From positions 1 to 35,432 of IMG/VR virus record IMGVR_UViG_2737471826_000010: 35,432 nucleotides of DNA; one strand, written 5' to 3'. The notes under the pieces are model-generated. The model did no database searches. It was given only the letters and a program-made list of their open reading frames with translations, and was not told the origin of the DNA. This document shows positions 10,543 to 22,242 of the stretch, one piece after another. The stretch comes from a virus. Taxonomy: Duplodnaviria > Heunggongvirae > Uroviricota > Caudoviricetes. Each line of letters starts with the position of its first letter. Positions within the stretch are counted from its first letter, which is position 1. The translations under genes were made by a program, and so were the position numbers.

Positions 10543-10749
10543 ATGTGCATGGGTAGCTCACCATCAGTGCCTGCAACACCAGAAGTTCAGGCAGCACCAC
10601 AGGAGCAGGATGCCGCCGTTGTTGATGCCCGCGACGAAGAAACTCGTCGCCGTCGCGCTGCTGCTGGTCGTAGTTCTACGCTGCTTACCGGTTCTCAGGG
10701 CGACACATCAACCGCTAATACCAGCGGTAAAACGCTGCTTGGTCAGTAA
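10543..10749 (+). CDS. hypothetical small protein (68 aa), first gene of head block
   Basis: ATG with GGAG RBS; low-complexity Ala/Arg/Thr-rich product. Confidence 0.4.
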   Translation: MCMGSSPSVPATPEVQAAPQEQDAAVVDARDEETRRRRAAAGRSSTLLTGSQGDTSTANTSGKTLLGQ

Positions 10750-10763
10750 CCGGAGTCATTGAA

Positions 10764-12443
10764 ATGGCGGAAACAACTAAAGAGCGATTGAACAAACAGT
10801 TCGCACAACTTGAAAGCGAGCGTCAATCGTTCGAGCCGCACTGGCGCGAGTTGAGTGATTACATCAACCCGCGTGGTTCCCGCTTTCTGACTTCTGAGGT
10901 CAACCGTAACGATCGACGCAATACACGTATTATTGATTCGACCGGGACTATGGCGGCGCGCACTCTCGCCAGCGGCATGATGTCAGGCATCACAAGCCCC
11001 GCGCGTCCGTGGTTTCGCCTGGCTACGCCAGATCCTGAAATGATGGATTATGGCCCTGTTAAGTTGTGGCTTGAGGCGGTGCAGAACCGCATGAACGATA
11101 TGTTCAATAAGTCGAATCTCTACCAGTCTCTTCCGCAGTTATACGGAAGCCTCGGCACATACAGCACTGGTGCAATGGCGGTGCTGGAGGATGACGAGGA
11201 CATCATTCGCACAATGCCATTCCCGATAGGCAGTTACTACCTGGCTAACTCACCTCGTGGCAGTGTGGACACCTGTTTTCGCAAGTTCTCTATGACTGTT
11301 CGTCAGCTTGTTCAGGAGTTCGGGCTAAATAACGTCAGCGAATCCGTAAAAAGCATGTGGGAAAGCGGCACCTACGAGAAGTGGATTGAAGTGATGCATT
11401 CGGTTTACCCGAACATTGACCGCGATACATCGAAGCTGGATAGCAAGAACAAGCCATTCAAATCGGTTTATTACGAGGTTGGTGGCGATAACGACAAGTT
11501 GTTGCGTGAGTCCGGATTCGATGAGTTTCCAATTATGGCTCCGCGCTGGGAAGTTAACGGCGAAGATGTTTATGGATCATCATGCCCGGGTATGCTGGCG
11601 CTTGGACCTGTTAAGGCATTGCAGCTTCTCCAGAAGCGCAAGTCGCAGTTGATTGATAAAGCCACCAATCCGCCGATGGTTGCTCCGACTTCCCTCAAGA
11701 ATCAGCGCGCCTCCCTTCTTCCTGGCGACATCACGTATATCGATCAGATTACTGGTCAGGATGGTTTCAGGCCTGCTTATCTGGTTAACCCCAGTACAGC
11801 AGATCTGGTAGCAGACATTCAGGACACCCGCCAAATCATTAACAGCGCCTACTTTGTCGATCTGTTCATGATGTTGCAGAACATCAATACCCGCTCGATG
11901 CCTGTTGAAGCGGTGATCGAAATGAAAGAAGAAAAACTTCTGATGTTGGGGCCGGTTCTGGAGCGTCTGAACGACGAATGTCTTAATCCTCTCATTGACC
12001 GCGCTTTCTCGATGATGGTGCGTAAAAACATGCTGCCGCCACCGCCTGACGCGATGGAAGGTATGCCCCTGAAGGTCGAATACATTTCTGTCATGGCTCA
12101 GGCGCAGAAGTCTATCGGCCTGTCCAGTCTGGCGTCTACGGTCAACTTCATTGGTCAACTTGCGCAAGCGAAACCAGAAGCTCTCGACAAACTCAATGTT
12201 GATCAGGCGATCGATGCATTCGCTGATATGTCCGGAGTGTCTCCAACCGTCATTGTTCCGCAGGAACAGGTTGAGCAGGCTCGCCAGCAACGGGCACAGC
12301 AGCAACAGCAGCAACAAATGATGGCGATGGGAATGGCGGCGGCACAGGGCGCCAAGACGCTAAGCGAAGCTAAAACTTCGGATCCGAGTGTTTTGTCAGC
12401 TATGGCGAATGCAGTTAGTGGTCAGGGTGGGCAATCACAATGA
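10764..12443 (+). CDS. portal (head-to-tail connector) protein, T7 gp8-like
   Basis: 559 aa; size, position after terL and Gln-rich C-terminal tail (QARQQRAQQQQQQQMMAMGMAAAQGAK) resemble podovirus connector proteins. Confidence 0.7.
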   Translation: MAETTKERLNKQFAQLESERQSFEPHWRELSDYINPRGSRFLTSEVNRNDRRNTRIIDSTGTMAARTLASGMMSGITSPARPWFRLATPDPEMMDYGPVKLWLEAVQNRMNDMFNKSNLYQSLPQLYGSLGTYSTGAMAVLEDDEDIIRTMPFPIGSYYLANSPRGSVDTCFRKFSMTVRQLVQEFGLNNVSESVKSMWESGTYEKWIEVMHSVYPNIDRDTSKLDSKNKPFKSVYYEVGGDNDKLLRESGFDEFPIMAPRWEVNGEDVYGSSCPGMLALGPVKALQLLQKRKSQLIDKATNPPMVAPTSLKNQRASLLPGDITYIDQITGQDGFRPAYLVNPSTADLVADIQDTRQIINSAYFVDLFMMLQNINTRSMPVEAVIEMKEEKLLMLGPVLERLNDECLNPLIDRAFSMMVRKNMLPPPPDAMEGMPLKVEYISVMAQAQKSIGLSSLASTVNFIGQLAQAKPEALDKLNVDQAIDAFADMSGVSPTVIVPQEQVEQARQQRAQQQQQQQMMAMGMAAAQGAKTLSEAKTSDPSVLSAMANAVSGQGGQSQ

Positions 12444-12736
12444 CAGATTACGAAGATGATCAACTGAAAGAAGAAAACGCCAGTAAGCAACGTGACATGG
12501 CACAGCGTGAAATTGATGACATTCGCTTTGTCATGAGCAGTGAACAGGGGCGTCGCGTTGTCTGGTCTGTGCTGGAGAAAGGCCGGGTGTTTTCCGCTAT
12601 CTCACCGATGGACGCTATGGCAATGGCATTTAATGAGGGGCAACGCAATCTGGCGCTGGAACTGTTTCAGCGCGTTATGGCGCATTGCCCTGAACAGTAT
12701 TTGAAGATGGCCAAAGAGGCCAGTGAACAGGAGTGA
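12440..12736 (+). CDS. hypothetical head-assembly protein (98 aa)
   Basis: ORF overlapping portal stop (ATGA). Confidence 0.45.
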   Translation: MTDYEDDQLKEENASKQRDMAQREIDDIRFVMSSEQGRRVVWSVLEKGRVFSAISPMDAMAMAFNEGQRNLALELFQRVMAHCPEQYLKMAKEASEQE

Positions 12737-12738
12737 TC

Positions 12739-13434
12739 ATGAATTTATTTGAGCGTTTGCTGTATCGCCGTCTTTGCAATGAGCAACCAGTCGATGGTGG
12801 AGCAGCTCCGGCTGCGTCAGAACCGTCAGCGCCTGCAGGTGATAACCCTGCTCCAGTTGGTGATCCATCACAACAGGAAGGTGATAAGCCACAACCTGTT
12901 GCTGATGGCGATAAACCTGCTGATGACAAAAAGCCTGAAAACGATAAGCAGGATGAAAAAAAGGACGGCGATAAACCAGAGGGTGCGCCTGAGAAGTACG
13001 AGTTTCAGGCTGCCGAAGGCGTAGAGCTGGATACAGAAGCGTTGAAGGAGTTCGAGCCGGTGGCGCGAGAACTTAACCTGACCAACGAGCAAGCGCAAAA
13101 GCTGGTTGATGCTTATCCGAAGATTCTGGCAGGTGTGCAGCAGCGCCAGGCAGAAGCCTGGCAGAAAACAACCGAGCAGTGGGCTGCTGATGTAAAAGCT
13201 GACAAAGAAATCGGTGGCGACAAGTTGATTTCTAACCTTAGCGCCGCACAGCGTGCGCTTGACCAGTTCGGGACACCTGAACTCAAAGAATATCTGAACA
13301 CCACCGGGCTGGGTAATCACCCTGATCTGGTCAAAACGTTCGTGAAAATCGGAAAGGCGATGTCTGAAGATGGCATGGTCACCGGTGGTAATGAAGGCCA
13401 GCGTAGTGCGGCCGAAGTGCTCTATGGCAACTAA
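12739..13434 (+). CDS. scaffolding protein (putative)
   Basis: Pro/Asp/Glu/Lys-rich low-complexity N-terminus then helical segment; between portal and capsid; start ATG 12739 with AGGAG RBS; C-terminus SAAEVLYGN. Confidence 0.5.
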   Translation: MNLFERLLYRRLCNEQPVDGGAAPAASEPSAPAGDNPAPVGDPSQQEGDKPQPVADGDKPADDKKPENDKQDEKKDGDKPEGAPEKYEFQAAEGVELDTEALKEFEPVARELNLTNEQAQKLVDAYPKILAGVQQRQAEAWQKTTEQWAADVKADKEIGGDKLISNLSAAQRALDQFGTPELKEYLNTTGLGNHPDLVKTFVKIGKAMSEDGMVTGGNEGQRSAAEVLYGN

Positions 13435-13442
13435 GAGAGGAA

Positions 13443-14435
13443 ATGACAATGGCTGTTAAAGGCTTAACTGCGCTAACGCTGGCTGACTGGGGTAAGCGCG
13501 TCGATCCAAACGGGAAAGTCGATAAGATTATCGAGCTTCTCGGTCAAACTAACCCGATCCTTCAGGATATGCCTTTTGTCGAAGGGAACCTTCCTACCGG
13601 ACACCGAACCACCATTCGTTCTGGTTTACCTTCAGCTACCTGGCGTTTGCTGAACTATGGCGTACAGCCAAGCAAATCAACCACAGTGCAGGTAACCGAT
13701 TCCGTTGGCATGCTGGAAACCTATGCTGAAGTCGATAAGTCACTGGCTGATCTGAACGGCAATACCGCCGAATTCCGCCTGTCTGAAGACCGCGCATTTA
13801 TTGAAGCGATGAATCAGCAGATGGCGCAGACGCTGTTTTATGGTGATTCCAGCGTTAACCCTCAGCAGTTTATGGGACTGTCCTCCCGCTATTCCAGCCT
13901 GTCTGCAGGTAATGCTCAGAACATCATTGATGCTGGTGGCACGGGTACAGATAACACCTCAATCTGGTTAGTGGTGTGGGGCGAAAACACCGTGCATGGC
14001 ATCTTCCCGAAAGGGCAGAAGGCTGGCATTCAGATGGAAGATAAAGGCCAGGTGACACTGGAAGATGCTAATGGCGGCAAGTACGAAGGCTACCGTACCC
14101 ATTACAAATGGGACAACGGACTTGCTCTGCGTGACTGGCGTTATGTTGTTCGCATTGCAAACATCGATGTCAGCAATCTTTCAGAACCTTCCTCTGCCGC
14201 AAATATTGCGAAGTTGATGGTTAAAGCACTGCATCGCATTCCAAACCGTGGCATGGGTCGCCCGGTGTTCTACATGAACCGCACTGTAGGCCAGGCTCTT
14301 GATCTGCAGTCTCTGGAGAAAACATCTCTGGCTATCAGCGTAAAAGAGACAGAAGGCGAGTGGTGGACTTCATTCCGTGGTGTACCAATCCGTGAAACTG
14401 ATGCGCTTCTGGAAACAGAAGCCCGCGTGGTGTAA
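13443..14435 (+). CDS. major capsid protein (putative)
   Basis: 330 aa ORF after scaffold; alternative start ATG 13449 has better RBS spacing. Confidence 0.55.
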   Translation: MTMAVKGLTALTLADWGKRVDPNGKVDKIIELLGQTNPILQDMPFVEGNLPTGHRTTIRSGLPSATWRLLNYGVQPSKSTTVQVTDSVGMLETYAEVDKSLADLNGNTAEFRLSEDRAFIEAMNQQMAQTLFYGDSSVNPQQFMGLSSRYSSLSAGNAQNIIDAGGTGTDNTSIWLVVWGENTVHGIFPKGQKAGIQMEDKGQVTLEDANGGKYEGYRTHYKWDNGLALRDWRYVVRIANIDVSNLSEPSSAANIAKLMVKALHRIPNRGMGRPVFYMNRTVGQALDLQSLEKTSLAISVKETEGEWWTSFRGVPIRETDALLETEARVV

Positions 14436-14451
14436 CGCCTGTTATTAACCT

Positions 14452-14471
14452 GTGGGTCGTAACAGACCCAC
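14452..14471 (+). other. stem-loop downstream of capsid gene
   Basis: GTGGGTC/GACCCAC stem, 6-nt loop, no T-tract; possible RNA processing or stability element. Confidence 0.3.
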
Positions 14472-14486
14472 TAATGGAGAAAGAAG

Positions 14487-14924
14487 ATGATCACCGACAA
14501 ACTGTTGATGTTCTCCGAAGCACAGGCGGTAACTGATACCGCGGCTTCTACTGACGTAATCGATCTCGGTCCAATTGACGGAAAACGTCGTGATATCGGC
14601 GTGGGTTACCCGCTTGAGTTTTGGGTGCTGGTTAACGCAGCCGCCGCAGCAAGCGGTGATGCAACTGTAAACATCCAGTTGCAGACGAGTGAGAATAACA
14701 GCTCATGGACCACTATTTATGATAGTGGCGCACTGGCAAAGACCGCCCTGACAGCAGGTAAACGAGTTGTTTCTGCAAAGGTGCCTGCCGGTGTTCAGCG
14801 ATATCTGCGTGTTAACTACTCCGTCGCAACTGGACCACTTACGGCTGGCGAATTCACTGCTGGTATCAGTCTTGATGTTGATGCCAATACGCCGTATCCG
14901 ATCCGCTCAAAAGTAACTGGTTAA
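14487..14924 (+). CDS. hypothetical virion protein (145 aa)
   Basis: ORF with GGAGAAAG RBS in head gene block; Ala/Thr/Val-rich. Confidence 0.45.
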   Translation: MITDKLLMFSEAQAVTDTAASTDVIDLGPIDGKRRDIGVGYPLEFWVLVNAAAAASGDATVNIQLQTSENNSSWTTIYDSGALAKTALTAGKRVVSAKVPAGVQRYLRVNYSVATGPLTAGEFTAGISLDVDANTPYPIRSKVTG

Positions 14925-14934
14925 GGTGATATCG

Positions 14935-15270
14935 ATGTCAGGTGAGAAACCAAGATACCGCGTTCTGCGCCTCTCTCATATCCATAACACTCTGTGGCCG
15001 GAGGGGGCAGAAATCGAATACGAAGGTGAGCCTGGTAGCGCACTGGAACCTGTTAACGATGCAGCCAGACAGGCAAAAGCAAAAGTTGCAGGAAAGGTGT
15101 CAATGGCAGCAACCAGCACCAAAATCATCAACGATGTGTCAGATGATGGTGAACTGGATAAGCTCCGTGAAGAGTACGAATTGCTCTTTAACGAGAAGCC
15201 ACACCATAACGCTAAAGCCGAAACGCTCCGCGAGAAGATCGCAGATAAGCGTAAAGAACTAGGCGTGTAA
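14935..15270 (+). CDS. hypothetical virion-associated protein (111 aa)
   Basis: Start set to ATG 14935 after AAGGTGA; followed by terminator. Confidence 0.45.
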   Translation: MSGEKPRYRVLRLSHIHNTLWPEGAEIEYEGEPGSALEPVNDAARQAKAKVAGKVSMAATSTKIINDVSDDGELDKLREEYELLFNEKPHHNAKAETLREKIADKRKELGV

Positions 15271-15286
15271 GCCTCGCGAATCCGAC

Positions 15287-15308
15287 AAGGGGCTTCGGCC
15301 CCTTTATT
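15287..15308 (+). terminator. internal terminator between head and tail genes
   Basis: Stem AAGGGGC/GCCCCTT with TTCG tetraloop, then TTTATT. Confidence 0.5.
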
Positions 15309-15320
15309 GCAGGAGTGTAT

Positions 15321-15644
15321 ATGGAACTCGTAAACCTCAAAACCGGCACTGACAGCTACCAGGATGAGAGCGGAGAAACCAGAACTCGCGATGAATACCC
15401 GTGGGGGCTGTGCATCACTCTTAATAACGACACATTGAATAAGCTGAAGGCGCAACCTAAGGGCGTCGGAACAGAAGTGATGATAACTGCAAAAGCTGTT
15501 ATTCGAGGCCTGTCTGCCAGAGAAACTGACGATGGTGTTAATCGCAGCGCCGATCTGCAGATCACTGATATGGCGATCGCTCCTGTTTCCGGGGATGTAG
15601 AAAAATCAGCGGCTGAAACCCTGTACGGCAATGGGGGTGAGTAA
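15321..15644 (+). CDS. hypothetical virion protein sharing the scaffold C-terminal motif
   Basis: Start ATG 15321 with CAGGAG RBS; C-terminus SAAETLYGNGGE matches scaffold C-terminus SAAEVLYGN. Confidence 0.45.
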   Translation: MELVNLKTGTDSYQDESGETRTRDEYPWGLCITLNNDTLNKLKAQPKGVGTEVMITAKAVIRGLSARETDDGVNRSADLQITDMAIAPVSGDVEKSAAETLYGNGGE

Positions 15645-19184: not shown

Positions 19185-19729
19185 TGTGCGATCCGGTTAT
19201 TGCTGGTGGCGCAATGCTCGCCATGAGTGGCATTCAGGCATACACCCAGTACCAACAGGGAAAGTATGCCTCGAAGGTTGCAGAAGCGAACGCAGATATA
19301 GCCACAGCTCAGGCAAATGATGCAATAAACAGAGGTAACGCTGAAGCTGAGCAACGGCGCAGAGAGACCCGACAGCGGCTTGGTACACAGGCGGCGACAA
19401 TGGGGGCTACCGGCGCTGATTTATCTACAGGTAACGCGCTGGATATATTTGGCGACACTGCCCAGTTTGGCGCTCTTGATTCTCTGACGACGGTGAATAA
19501 CGCGCAACGCGAGGCTTACGGTTATCAGGTTCAGGCTGCCAACTATAAAGCAGAAGCCAGTTCAGCCCGTAAACAGGGGAATGTGGGAGCAGCAACAACA
19601 TTGCTCACTGCGCCTCTGAAGGCATACGGTGCGTACCAGATGTTTGGTGGGACGTGGAGTCCGTTTACTCAAAGCACCCCTGCGCCAATCGGAGCAGCAG
19701 CAGGAACCAGATTACCCGGAGGATTATAA
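19184..19729 (+). CDS. internal virion protein (gp14-like)
   Basis: 181 aa starting MC followed by hydrophobic segment, Ala/Gln-rich; position matches podovirus internal core protein. Confidence 0.4.
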   Translation: MCDPVIAGGAMLAMSGIQAYTQYQQGKYASKVAEANADIATAQANDAINRGNAEAEQRRRETRQRLGTQAATMGATGADLSTGNALDIFGDTAQFGALDSLTTVNNAQREAYGYQVQAANYKAEASSARKQGNVGAATTLLTAPLKAYGAYQMFGGTWSPFTQSTPAPIGAAAGTRLPGGL

Positions 19730-22242
19730 TGCCAGTCGTACCAACAGTATCCGGACGTCAGGTTGAGAGCCGTGGAGTTCAGTCAGCAGGCTTGCAGACG
19801 TTTTCTCAGCCAGGTATTGGTGATGCTTTTGTTCGGGCAGGGGCAGAGGCAATTGATGTTTTGGGGCAGGCAAAACAGCGTGCCAATATTGCCTTGGCTC
19901 AGGAGGCATCTCTTAACCTCAGTCAGATAAGCAGTGATTTGCTGAATAATCCTGAAACAGGATTGCTGAACCTGAAAGGGAAAAATGCTATTGGAAAAGG
20001 CCATGAGTATACGCAGCAGTTTGATGCTCAGGTCGAACAATTGGCTATGTCGCTGCCGGATGAACAGGCTCGTAATGCTTTCATGCAGCAGGCGCAGCAG
20101 CAGCGCATTCAGTTCACTACGCAGGCCGGGCGGCACGAGATAGGGCAAATAAATGCCTACGAAGAAGGCCAGTTTCAGGCTACGCTGCTGAACAATGGTA
20201 AAAATGCCGCAGCATTGTATGGCGACAACGCCGCATACGTATTGGCTAATAAGCAAACTTTCCAGCAAATTGAGGATTACGGCATTGCACATGGCTGGAG
20301 TGACGAGCAAATCCAGGCCAAGAAAATCGAGTTTAAAGAAGCAACAGCAAAAGCAACTGCTCAAAATGCTATTGGAGCAAACTATCTTCAGGTAAGACGG
20401 CAAAACGGCGAGTTAAGCGATACTGCTGCTGGATCTCGCCGTGCTGTAGCAGATAGTGGCTCTTCCGATCGTACCCGCGGTATACGCAACAATAACCCCG
20501 GCAATCTTGAATACAGCAAAACTAATCCGTGGGTTGGGCAGACTGGTGATGATGGTCGCTTTGCCAAATTCGAAACCCCTGAACACGGTATTCGTGCATT
20601 AGGGCGGAACCTGATGTCGTATCAGCGGCAGGGTATTGATACCGTCAGCGAGATAATTAATCGCTGGGCACCGCCTACTGATAAAAATGACACTATGTCG
20701 TATATCAAAGCAGTGTGCGAACAACTTGGCGTTTCTGCTGATGAGCCTCTCGATGCATCAAATCCTGATACCCTGAAGGCGCTTTGTGCAGCCATTATCC
20801 ATCATGAAAACGGTAGCCAGCCATACAGTGATCAGCAGTTAACTGCAGGTGTTAGTGCTGCGCTGGGGCTTTCTCAGCTACCGACAAAAAATAAACGTTA
20901 TACCGGTGTAGCCTGGTTCGATGCTTTAAGTGAATCAGATCAGGCCAGCGTGTTGCGACAGACTGATGCACTAGCCAGACAACAGCAGGCTGAATATAAA
21001 ACGATGCTCGACAGCCGGGTTCGCGATGCGACGGCTGCGTATATGCGTGGCGTTGAATTTCCTAACCCACCTGGTGAGGATGATTTTATTGCAGCTTATG
21101 GAGTCAGAGAAGGAAACCTGCGATATACCGAGTTTAAGAATACGCAGATCGCCGGACAGTATATAGGCTCTTTCCGCAACATGCCGACAAGCAGCATTAC
21201 AGCATATGTTGAGCAATTACGCCCGGATACTGGTGATACAGGGGAGGGGTATGCGGCACGCGCAGCTCTTTATGACAACGTTGTTTCGGCTGCAAATCAG
21301 GTGATAAAGCAGCGGCAGTCGGATCCTGTGCAGTTCTCTCTTGCCTCCGGACAGGCAAAGCCTATCGACATGAGCAATAAGGATAACTTTGGACAGAGCG
21401 TTGCCTTGCGTGCCGCTCAGGTCAGTGACCTTGCTAAGTCATATGGCACTCCACTGACGTTCTTTTCCAAAGACGAGGCCAATCAGATCGGTGTTTTCTT
21501 TCGTGATGCGCCAGTTTCCCAACAGGCAGCATATCTCGATACCATCAGGCAGAGCACTGGTGGTGGGCAGGTGTATATGTCAGCACTACAGCAGATCAGT
21601 GCCAACGCTCCATCTGCTGCCGTTGCCGGGATACTGATGGATAAGCCTGGTGGTATTTTGGCAGAAAAAAACTGGTTTAATCCTGATGTTTCCGTGTCTC
21701 CTGAAACCGCAGCGCAGACAATTCTTGCTGGTGCGGCGGCTCGTAAAGGTACTGATGACGCGAAAGGTATTCCGATGCCTAAAGATGCTGATCTCCGCCT
21801 TGAGTTTTCTGACATGGTGAAGGATGCATTTGCTGGTGATGCTCAGGGGGCATCAATGGCATACGAGATCGCAAAGGACTATTACGCTGGTGTGATGGCG
21901 AAAAAAGGCGTGGTATCAGGCGAAATTGACAATGATATCTGGAAACAGGCTGTTAACGTAGCTACAGGTGGTGTGCATGACTATAACGGAATGGGGAATG
22001 TTCTTTTGCCGTGGGGAATGTCTGCAGAGCAATTCGATAAGCAGGTTAATCAGGCTTGGAATGAACAAGTTGTCGGCACAGGGATAAAAACACCGCTTGG
22101 TCAGTATGGTTTGCAAAGTTACGGCGATAGTCAGTACCTGGTGAAACTTGGTACTGGTTATCTGCTAAAAGATGATGGTTCTCCCGTTGTTCTTGATCTG
22201 ACACAGAAGCGTCAGAGATTCTCCGGAGATATTCCGCAATGA
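19729..22242 (+). CDS. internal virion/ejection protein (838 aa)
   Basis: Start ATG 19729 (TAATG overlap, GGAGG RBS) rather than the track start at 19654. Confidence 0.5.
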   Translation: MPVVPTVSGRQVESRGVQSAGLQTFSQPGIGDAFVRAGAEAIDVLGQAKQRANIALAQEASLNLSQISSDLLNNPETGLLNLKGKNAIGKGHEYTQQFDAQVEQLAMSLPDEQARNAFMQQAQQQRIQFTTQAGRHEIGQINAYEEGQFQATLLNNGKNAAALYGDNAAYVLANKQTFQQIEDYGIAHGWSDEQIQAKKIEFKEATAKATAQNAIGANYLQVRRQNGELSDTAAGSRRAVADSGSSDRTRGIRNNNPGNLEYSKTNPWVGQTGDDGRFAKFETPEHGIRALGRNLMSYQRQGIDTVSEIINRWAPPTDKNDTMSYIKAVCEQLGVSADEPLDASNPDTLKALCAAIIHHENGSQPYSDQQLTAGVSAALGLSQLPTKNKRYTGVAWFDALSESDQASVLRQTDALARQQQAEYKTMLDSRVRDATAAYMRGVEFPNPPGEDDFIAAYGVREGNLRYTEFKNTQIAGQYIGSFRNMPTSSITAYVEQLRPDTGDTGEGYAARAALYDNVVSAANQVIKQRQSDPVQFSLASGQAKPIDMSNKDNFGQSVALRAAQVSDLAKSYGTPLTFFSKDEANQIGVFFRDAPVSQQAAYLDTIRQSTGGGQVYMSALQQISANAPSAAVAGILMDKPGGILAEKNWFNPDVSVSPETAAQTILAGAAARKGTDDAKGIPMPKDADLRLEFSDMVKDAFAGDAQGASMAYEIAKDYYAGVMAKKGVVSGEIDNDIWKQAVNVATGGVHDYNGMGNVLLPWGMSAEQFDKQVNQAWNEQVVGTGIKTPLGQYGLQSYGDSQYLVKLGTGYLLKDDGSPVVLDLTQKRQRFSGDIPQ

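Follow-up and report, generated by a model that had tools for sequence, protein, structure and literature searches.

A candidate coat-docking peptide at the ends of the scaffold and the gp10-like head protein of epsilon15-like phages

The shared tail in the head region

Two proteins encoded in the head region of a tailed phage genome (IMG/VR record IMGVR_UViG_2737471826_000010, Caudoviricetes), the scaffold and a small gp10-like protein, end in nearly the same short peptide, and what that peptide may do is the subject here. The whole stretch of 35,432 nucleotides that was analysed is called the window, and the region in question is 98-99% identical to three epsilon15-like podophages of Escherichia in the genus Uetakevirus, namely phiV10, TL-2011b and HEMP4. 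From comparison of the two protein families across genomes it seems reasonably probable that the peptide is a coat-docking end of the scaffold which the accessory head protein gp10 has copied. The elements most directly concerned are these.

12739-13434, + strand: scaffold, homologue of epsilon15 gp6 and BPP-1 Bbp18 (phrog_458, E=1.8e-111; no Pfam match)
13405-13431, + strand: scaffold C-terminal tail motif SAAEVLYGN
13443-14435, + strand: major capsid (coat) protein of the GP7 family (PF20911, E=2e-149; PDB 3J4U_A, 8CJZ_Y, 3J40_A)
15321-15644, + strand: gp10-like protein of 107 residues, homologue of epsilon15 gp10 (PF21628, phrog_825)
15606-15632, + strand: gp10-like C-terminal tail motif SAAETLYGN

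The scaffold ends in QRSAAEVLYGN (...GQRSAAEVLYGN) and the gp10-like protein in ...EKSAAETLYGNGGE, the nonapeptides SAAEVLYGN and SAAETLYGN being identical at eight of nine residues. Near-identical ends on the scaffold and on a 107-residue protein were the starting claim of the original prediction, and it holds, both + strand open reading frames (ORFs) being present; it was also right that the two proteins are otherwise dissimilar, with no Pfam or PHROG family in common (phrog_458 and no Pfam family for the scaffold, PF21628 and phrog_825 for the gp10-like protein). When 47 gene proxies from the window were shuffled with their composition preserved (n=1000) and the C-terminal 16-mers compared pairwise, a match of eight in nine between any two ends was reached in 0 of 1000 shuffles and one of seven in nine in 2, and the match is confirmed as not being chance. 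In the DNA that encodes the nonapeptides only 17 of 27 nucleotides are common to both, with serine written as AGT in one and TCA in the other and several third-position changes, and therefore no recent DNA duplication lies behind the likeness. The ORF lists give the scaffold from a GTG (12733-13434) whereas its homologues begin at the ATG at 12739 (MNLFERLL...), and give the gp10-like protein as 15315-15644 where the real start is the ATG at 15321, which has AGGAG before it and yields the 107 residues.

Identification of the 231-residue protein as the scaffold rests on its place directly upstream of the coat, in the order portal, Bbp19-like protein, scaffold and coat, and on a lack of any enzymatic domain. 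RefSeq, PHROG 458 and NCBI call it a protease, peptidase or endoprotease, a name that traces to a legacy 'putative endoprotease' similarity note. A function as prohead protease or peptidase was considered and rejected, no Pfam family being found at E<=0.01 and a profile search of the PDB giving only noise, and the label is probably a legacy mis-annotation.

Predicted structures place the two tails in similar settings. The AlphaFold2 (AF2) model of the scaffold is of low confidence (predicted local distance difference test, pLDDT, 43) and has a disordered stretch rich in Pro, Ala, Asp and Lys (residues 13-98) and helices over residues 99-210, after which a linker (211-223) leads to a short helix (224-229) that falls in the motif. 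In the model of the gp10-like protein (pLDDT 76) a short helix (36-41) precedes a long two-stranded beta-hairpin (53-88); after the hairpin come a linker (92-99, pLDDT below 50) and a second short helix (97-101), which lies within the motif. In both proteins the tail is thus predicted, as far as such models go, to be a short helical element on a flexible tether.

Conservation of the tail in both families

Loci for comparison were found via an alignment of the coat and number 97, comprising the window, 11 phage records, 5 viral contigs and 80 prophages (single loci carry L numbers below); single-protein scans with Bbp20 and with gp10 of ctQRb9 gave 1 and 4 loci, and the coat alignment was used for the set. 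A tail of the form A-x-x-[LMF]-[YF]-[G/P/S/D/A] ends the scaffold in about 87 of the 88 loci with a detected scaffold, and in 7 of 8 loci missed by the scaffold hidden Markov model (HMM) the ORF directly upstream of the coat keeps the motif, for example ERAMRAMYPTMFKN and NQRHARALYGS. Across nine diverse scaffold homologues the tail tyrosine (Y231 in an alignment numbered from 12733) is invariant.

The gp10-like family behaves in the same way. Its tail tyrosine is one of only ten invariant columns among 12 homologues of 28-74% identity, an alignment that reaches BPP-1, BcepC6B, Xanthomonas CP2 and Caulobacter BL94, and the tail consensus, K-K-S-A-A-[D/E]-x-L-Y-G, has 1-6 residues after it. Elsewhere in the protein the blocks YPWGL and LQITD are conserved. 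A profile search of 1.84 billion cluster representatives returned 3,535 gp10-like clusters (50% identity, E<=0.001), and [LMFIV][YF] stands within the last 18 residues in 135 of 143 representatives, these being the newly returned ones among the best 150. An alignment of homologues, which the original prediction had named as its check, thus finds the motif kept in both families. One gp10-like protein, of Podoviridae sp. ctEw122 (L085 9007-9375), has two tandem copies of the tail (…ATALYGAGSEGSRINNLSNALYGGG).

Within-genome co-variation of the two tails

The two tails of one genome resemble each other more than they resemble their orthologues elsewhere, as the following pairs illustrate.

Epsilon15: scaffold gp6 SDLISAFYPKK; gp10 ...KDAFYPDGEDD, KELKDAFYPDGEDD
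BPP-1: scaffold Bbp18 ...DARRLYAASNMNP; Bbp20 ...AAQRLYGASSMSA, SAAQRLYGASSMSA
Providencia and Proteus prophages (L165, L134): scaffold SAADVLFG; gp10-like SAADVLFD / STADVLFD
Burkholderia prophage (L157): scaffold PEQRAAKFYANTKT; gp10-like PEQRAAKFYSNTTT; 12 of 14 residues identical
Herminiimonas prophage (L110): scaffold SAADRMYGK; gp10-like SAADRLYGK

In the Proteus and Providencia prophages the tyrosine has changed to phenylalanine in both tails. Over 31 genomes, which hold 27 unique pairs, and with a 15-residue window anchored on the aromatic residue, the mean within-genome identity of the tails is 5.85 of 15 against 3.93 +/- 0.26 for permuted pairs, a value reached in 0 of 20,000 permutations. 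Reduction to nine clade representatives with coats less than 70% identical leaves the result standing (6.44 against 3.2 +/- 0.62 permuted; again 0/20,000). The excess of matches is found at the variable positions -7 to -1, +1 and +2, beyond the conserved alanine, leucine and tyrosine.

Copying between the genes at the DNA level does not account for this. Codons are identical at 56 of 161 residue-matched tail positions (Met and Trp left out), where 65.9 are expected from the codon usage of the same genes, and in the Burkholderia prophage a 12-residue tail match includes only 4 identical codons. Gene conversion is rejected on these grounds, codon identity being at or below the expectation, and since codon matches are no commoner than expected the similarity of the tails is kept by selection on the peptide. 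A single binding site that both tails must fit would lead one to expect such selection. That the small protein may use the same docking site as the scaffold, as had been suggested when the likeness was first noticed, therefore gains strong comparative support from conservation, within-genome co-variation and selection at the amino-acid level.

These results also bear on the view that the tails have no shared function, the likeness being a remnant of exon-like shuffling or of gene conversion, or chance, and gp10 an external staple as annotated. The PDB 3J40 model and the Pfam and NCBI names, which speak of a coat or staple protein, favour it. The window match is, as said, rarer than 1 in 1000 shuffles, codon identity is no higher than expected, and the tail is kept in families down to about 28% identity and with parallel substitutions; moreover the staple assignment has been withdrawn from gp10 and given to a homologue of Bbp16, which the window also encodes, and gp10 is missing from about two thirds of the loci where cement is detected in 95. 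The view is already largely refuted, and we give it almost no credence.

A second way for two tails to vary together would be recognition by a chaperone, protease or other host factor, with the co-variation tracking host lineage. Tail types are indeed partly correlated with clade and host, enterics having mostly SAAExLYG and Burkholderiales RRLY.AS.M. However, epsilon15 (AFYP) and PAT1 (LYG), both phages of Salmonella, have different tails, the Yersinia phage YeP4 lacks the canonical motif despite its enteric host, and the canonical tail is seen only with the phage's own GP7 coat family, all of which make a host factor very improbable.

The tail on other proteins

Further proteins end in the motif. 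In L148 a divergent gp10-like ORF of 97 residues ends AAERMYPTMKE and the scaffold of that locus has ERIYPTMF... (RMYPTM against RIYPTM). In a Rhodospirillales prophage (L119 16072-16971) an unrelated 299-residue protein encoded downstream and with a weak DUF6973 match ends SERRARRFYDRTYRR where the scaffold has PEARARRLYDNTYKD, the paired tails being ERRARRFYDRTY and EARARRLYDNTY; no homologue of this protein was found among the other loci. Both tail matches lie above the 99.9th percentile of an antisense-ORF background. A third carrier of the tail motif is a very basic protein of about 59 residues (phrog_16028, MPGKGLWANIHAKRERIK...), which ends ESAAEKLY[G/P] and a Lys-rich stretch in three freshwater phages and is encoded right after the gp10-like gene (L086 8565-8744, L088 9330-9497, L093 396-659). 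Beyond scaffolds and gp10-like proteins the tail is therefore found on this basic protein in three loci and on one 299-residue protein, few cases that are known from their sequences only.

Separately from these, extra ORFs in the Rhodospirillales prophages L118, L120 and L121 match the scaffold profile via a 'GLGNHP' region, some of them fused into proteins of 400-800 residues, and PHROG 30010 likewise matches both the scaffold and tubular protein B. In the window a large internal-virion-protein ORF (19654-22242) has the tail-like string NAAALYGDN in its interior; it lies about 670 residues from the C-terminus and is probably chance.

Which partner the tails may bind

Besides the coat, three further head proteins encoded in the window have to be weighed as partners of the tails.

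10764-12443, + strand: portal (PF12236, E=1.6e-187; PDB 8CK0_A match)
12440-12736, + strand: Bbp19-like protein (PF25181)
14487-14924, + strand: Bbp16-type cement (decoration) protein (PF21190, E=4e-47; 3J4U_H cementing protein, E=4e-26; 8CJZ_B decoration protein)

A small ORF ahead of the portal (10543-10749, MCMGSSPSVP…GKTLLGQ) stands where epsilon15 has gp3 and is similar to gp47 of the Cobetia phage Carin1 (MCGSTPSVP…GKTLLGQ), with the N-terminal Cys and the C-terminal TLLGQ conserved.

Across the loci and the contrast phages examined, the canonical tail goes with the GP7 coat family alone, and it was present in every GP7-type coat locus covered by this comparison. The contrast phages have another coat and are Pelagibacter HTVC035P, Vibrio QH, Yersinia YeP4, Alcaligenes Piluca, Alteromonas ZP6 and Ralstonia C22 (L179-L184); none of the six has a canonical A-x-x-L-Y-G/P scaffold end, yet their portal and scaffold body are homologous, the latter being found by the family HMM at E=1e-8 to 1e-19. 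Their scaffolds share another conserved C-terminal pattern (…HP[E/D]H…V…), a possible counterpart, for that coat family, of the coat-docking end. Phages with the GP7 coat keep the tail, as in Pseudomonas YA3 (ERSLAERMYPNYPA) and Nostoc Nsp-JY18 (PPEERLYGKTT...). Restriction of the canonical tail to the GP7 coat favours the coat as partner and fits the usual role of a scaffold C-terminus. From this restriction and from the invariance of the tail we infer that the C-terminal end of the scaffold would bind the coat.

If both tails docked to the portal or another head-module protein such as Bbp19, gp10 would instead sit at the portal vertex. Contacts between scaffold and portal are known from other phages, gp10-like genes adjoin genes of the portal vertex (after the portal in BPP-1, before it in CP2 and before tubular protein A in epsilon15), and the long beta-hairpin of the model could conceivably belong to a ring protomer. 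The portal is disfavoured in that the canonical tail is missing where a homologous portal goes with a non-GP7 coat, and the keeping of the tail by all of hundreds of scaffold copies suits the coat more than a portal of 12 copies. As for Bbp19, no Bbp19-like gene was detected in five of the seven tail-keeping loci missed by the scaffold HMM, the five in which the upstream region with the portal is covered, which argues against it as a universal partner. A partner at the portal vertex is on balance improbable, and where the original prediction had left coat and portal open as docking partners, the coat is now favoured and the portal disfavoured.

The name and place of the gp10 family

Membership of the gp10-like protein in PF21628, of which the original prediction was unaware, is clear (E=7.3e-52, 98 of 98 profile positions; 3J40_N E=1.2e-21), and the family is labelled 'Major coat protein-like' in Pfam, 'capsid staple protein' at NCBI and 'staple' for chains H-N of PDB 3J40. 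Profile searches of PDB sequences with gp10 and the scaffold gave 3J40_N for gp10 and otherwise noise, and a Foldseek search of the gp10-like model against the PDB gave no neighbour below E=0.5. The staple label derives from epsilon15, for which Hryc and Baker in 2022 found that an AF2 model of the 111-residue protein bears little resemblance to the staple density, that a 130-residue protein fits this density, and that the original assignment was 'likely incorrect' (PMC9207676). Epsilon15 gene gp8 encodes 130 residues and its record notes an HHpred match to Bbp16, and the protein in the staple density is most likely gp8, the Bbp16 homologue.

A capsid staple or cement function of the gp10-like protein is accordingly rejected, on the misfit to the density (PMC9207676), on an AF2 model of hairpin and helix and not a jellyroll, and on the presence in the window of a separate Bbp16-type cement, which matches the cement proteins solved for BPP-1 and Carin1. 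Nor is the co-occurrence expected of a cement found. With two HMMs a gp10-like protein was detected in 33 of the 97 loci (34 with L148) against 95 for the Bbp16-type cement, and Carin1, whose capsid structure is solved (8CJZ/8CK0), has a cement, gp42, and the scaffold tail RSRAEIMYPDLK and is without a gp10-like gene, so that its structures hold no direct evidence on gp10. The reassigned staple density and the low frequency of gp10-like genes beside that of the cement together argue that gp10 is an accessory protein. The literature search found no paper that mentions the scaffold-like tail of gp10.

Two proteins from ENA contigs (P0022 and P0117) gave a ClpP Pfam match alongside gp10, which is rejected as a real domain. 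They are reciprocal chimeras of a Firmicute-type ClpP and an E. coli phage gp10, joined at QITDMAI and most likely metagenome assembly artefacts, and the stray match arises because of this.

Proposed docking of scaffold and gp10

Overall the comparisons are consistent with a mechanism in which the last ten or so residues of the scaffold and the gp10-like protein (S-A-A-[D/E]-x-L-Y-G, a short helix after a flexible linker) would act as a linear docking peptide. The tail of the scaffold would hold it to the inner face of the GP7-type coat during procapsid assembly, and gp10, an accessory head protein with a copy of the peptide, would be recruited to the same coat site and hence to the procapsid interior. 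Unlike the scaffold, gp10 could then stay in the virion. The need for both tails to fit one pocket would make them evolve together in any given phage. Physical binding, the coat as partner, the internal location of gp10 and its job once inside are what we infer from the patterns set out above, and the reading taken whole we regard as somewhat more credible than all its rivals together.

Several observations weigh against it. We know of no internal density for gp10 reported in epsilon15 maps. Portals of the contrast phages are only 24-36% identical to that of the window, and in three of those six the scaffold carries a degenerate x-Y-G/P close to its end (KAYG, TYGNEIVG, YAYPSEN), so that the switch is not clean. 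The Bbp16-type cement and the GP7 coat were each detected in 95 loci, and with the cement as widespread as the coat phyletic patterns cannot separate the two; only topology, the cement being outside and the scaffold inside, argues against the cement as partner. When the Y/F state of the tail was compared with columns of coat, portal, Bbp19 and Bbp16, the top associations were similarly strong in all four, driven by a few related Morganellaceae and with the anchor mis-set in three loci. The presence of gp10-like genes in about a third of the loci implies a role that is dispensable for the GP7 capsid type. Lastly, epsilon15 gp10 was only 'putatively identified' by virion proteomics (PMC9207676).

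The rival that shares most with this docking model accepts the common site and has gp10 displace the scaffold from the coat, as a competitor or release factor that times scaffold exit or tunes assembly, a role near to the late-acting or competing head factor that the original prediction had offered as an example. Tails so nearly identical would be expected to compete directly, and a precedent is at hand in phage 80alpha, where the last 16 residues of the scaffold bind the N-arm of the coat and CpmB of SaPI1 works by competing for that site (Dearborn et al. 2017, PMC5644958). In epsilon15-like genomes gp10 stands with the tail genes, beyond a hairpin or terminator, as would suit expression that is later or lower.

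14926-15270, + strand: gp9-like protein of 114 residues (phrog_590)
15287-15309, + strand: hairpin AAGGGGC-TTCG-GCCCCTT then TATTG, between the gp9-like and gp10-like genes
from 15644 onward, + strand: tail tubular proteins A and B (phrog_394, phrog_376)

The epsilon15 record has rho-independent terminators annotated at the spot equivalent to the hairpin. In the window its folding energy is no better than that of shuffles (47 nt tested, z=-1.46) and it is absent from the output of a consensus terminator scan. It is possibly a leaky terminator, and may on rather weak evidence lower the expression of gp10 relative to the head genes.

The gene order of BPP-1-like phages, in which the gp10 gene lies between those for portal and scaffold and not among late tail genes, speaks against such timing, and the occurrence of the tail on unrelated proteins is a better fit to a loading tag. 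Epsilon15 gp10 has been reported in mature virions, which is unexpected of a purely transient factor and fits a retained internal protein at least as well (PMC9207676). We therefore consider displacement of the scaffold unlikely. On the docking model gp10 is possibly a resident cargo, an ejection protein, or a competitor that times scaffold release.

Relation to known systems and significance

The closest precedent is the 80alpha pair gp46 and CpmB, two different proteins that share a short C-terminal helix-plus-hook for one site on an HK97-fold coat, whose evolution is thereby constrained (PMC5644958). The gp10-like protein likewise shares the C-terminal motif of its scaffold (8/9 in the window; 0/20,000 permutations across genomes). 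In contrast to CpmB, which is satellite-encoded and redirects capsid size, it is widespread and apparently present in virions, and a satellite-encoded mimic is rejected, since in all genomes examined its gene belongs to the head module of the phage itself. The motifs are unrelated, RIIK in the 80alpha hook and A-x-x-L-Y-G here, and binding, shown for 80alpha, is here a proposal.

As a general principle the cargo-loading peptides of encapsulins come nearest, being short C-terminal peptides on flexible linkers that direct unrelated cargos into an HK97-fold shell. Scaffold and portal are both lacking in encapsulins and the peptide sequences are different ones, whereas the tag here would primarily be the scaffold's own predicted coat-binding end, and evidence for multiple cargos is limited to gp10-like proteins, the small basic protein and one DUF6973-like protein. 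Terminal segments also mediate procapsid incorporation in the P22 and T7 scaffolds, the T4 capsid-targeting sequence and the C-terminal targeting of the HK97 protease. The helix-turn-helix of P22 and the N-terminal core-bound sequence of T4 are other folds or motifs, and none of these is known to have an identical tail on a scaffold and a small accessory virion protein.

A wider and distinctly more tentative proposal makes the tail a portable capsid-targeting tag of GP7-type (epsilon15/BPP-1-like) HK97-fold capsids, by which the scaffold, gp10-like proteins and occasional others (the small basic protein, the DUF6973-like one) would enter the procapsid via one coat pocket, with epsilon15 gp10 being internal, possibly ejected, and not a surface staple. 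It is a possibility that we would not yet favour. If true, any protein given the tail would be packaged, and the tail would be the phage counterpart of encapsulin cargo-loading peptides.

That the staple assignment of gp10 is wrong was already known from the 2022 paper (PMC9207676), as was the principle of shared docking from 80alpha and CpmB and from encapsulins. The protein of the window is a clear homologue of the epsilon15 'capsid staple', the structural role in that name is probably wrong, and its scaffold-like tail points inside the capsid. The tail gives a first testable functional clue for the large gp10 family, still named from an assignment judged wrong, and a probable coat-binding element for a widespread scaffold family that databases call a peptidase. 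It would also be a clean natural case of two proteins that co-evolve through one shared binding pocket, and, should it prove transferable as a loading tag, heads of the epsilon15/BPP-1 type could be loaded with cargo by means of it, BPP-1 being already of interest as a display platform.

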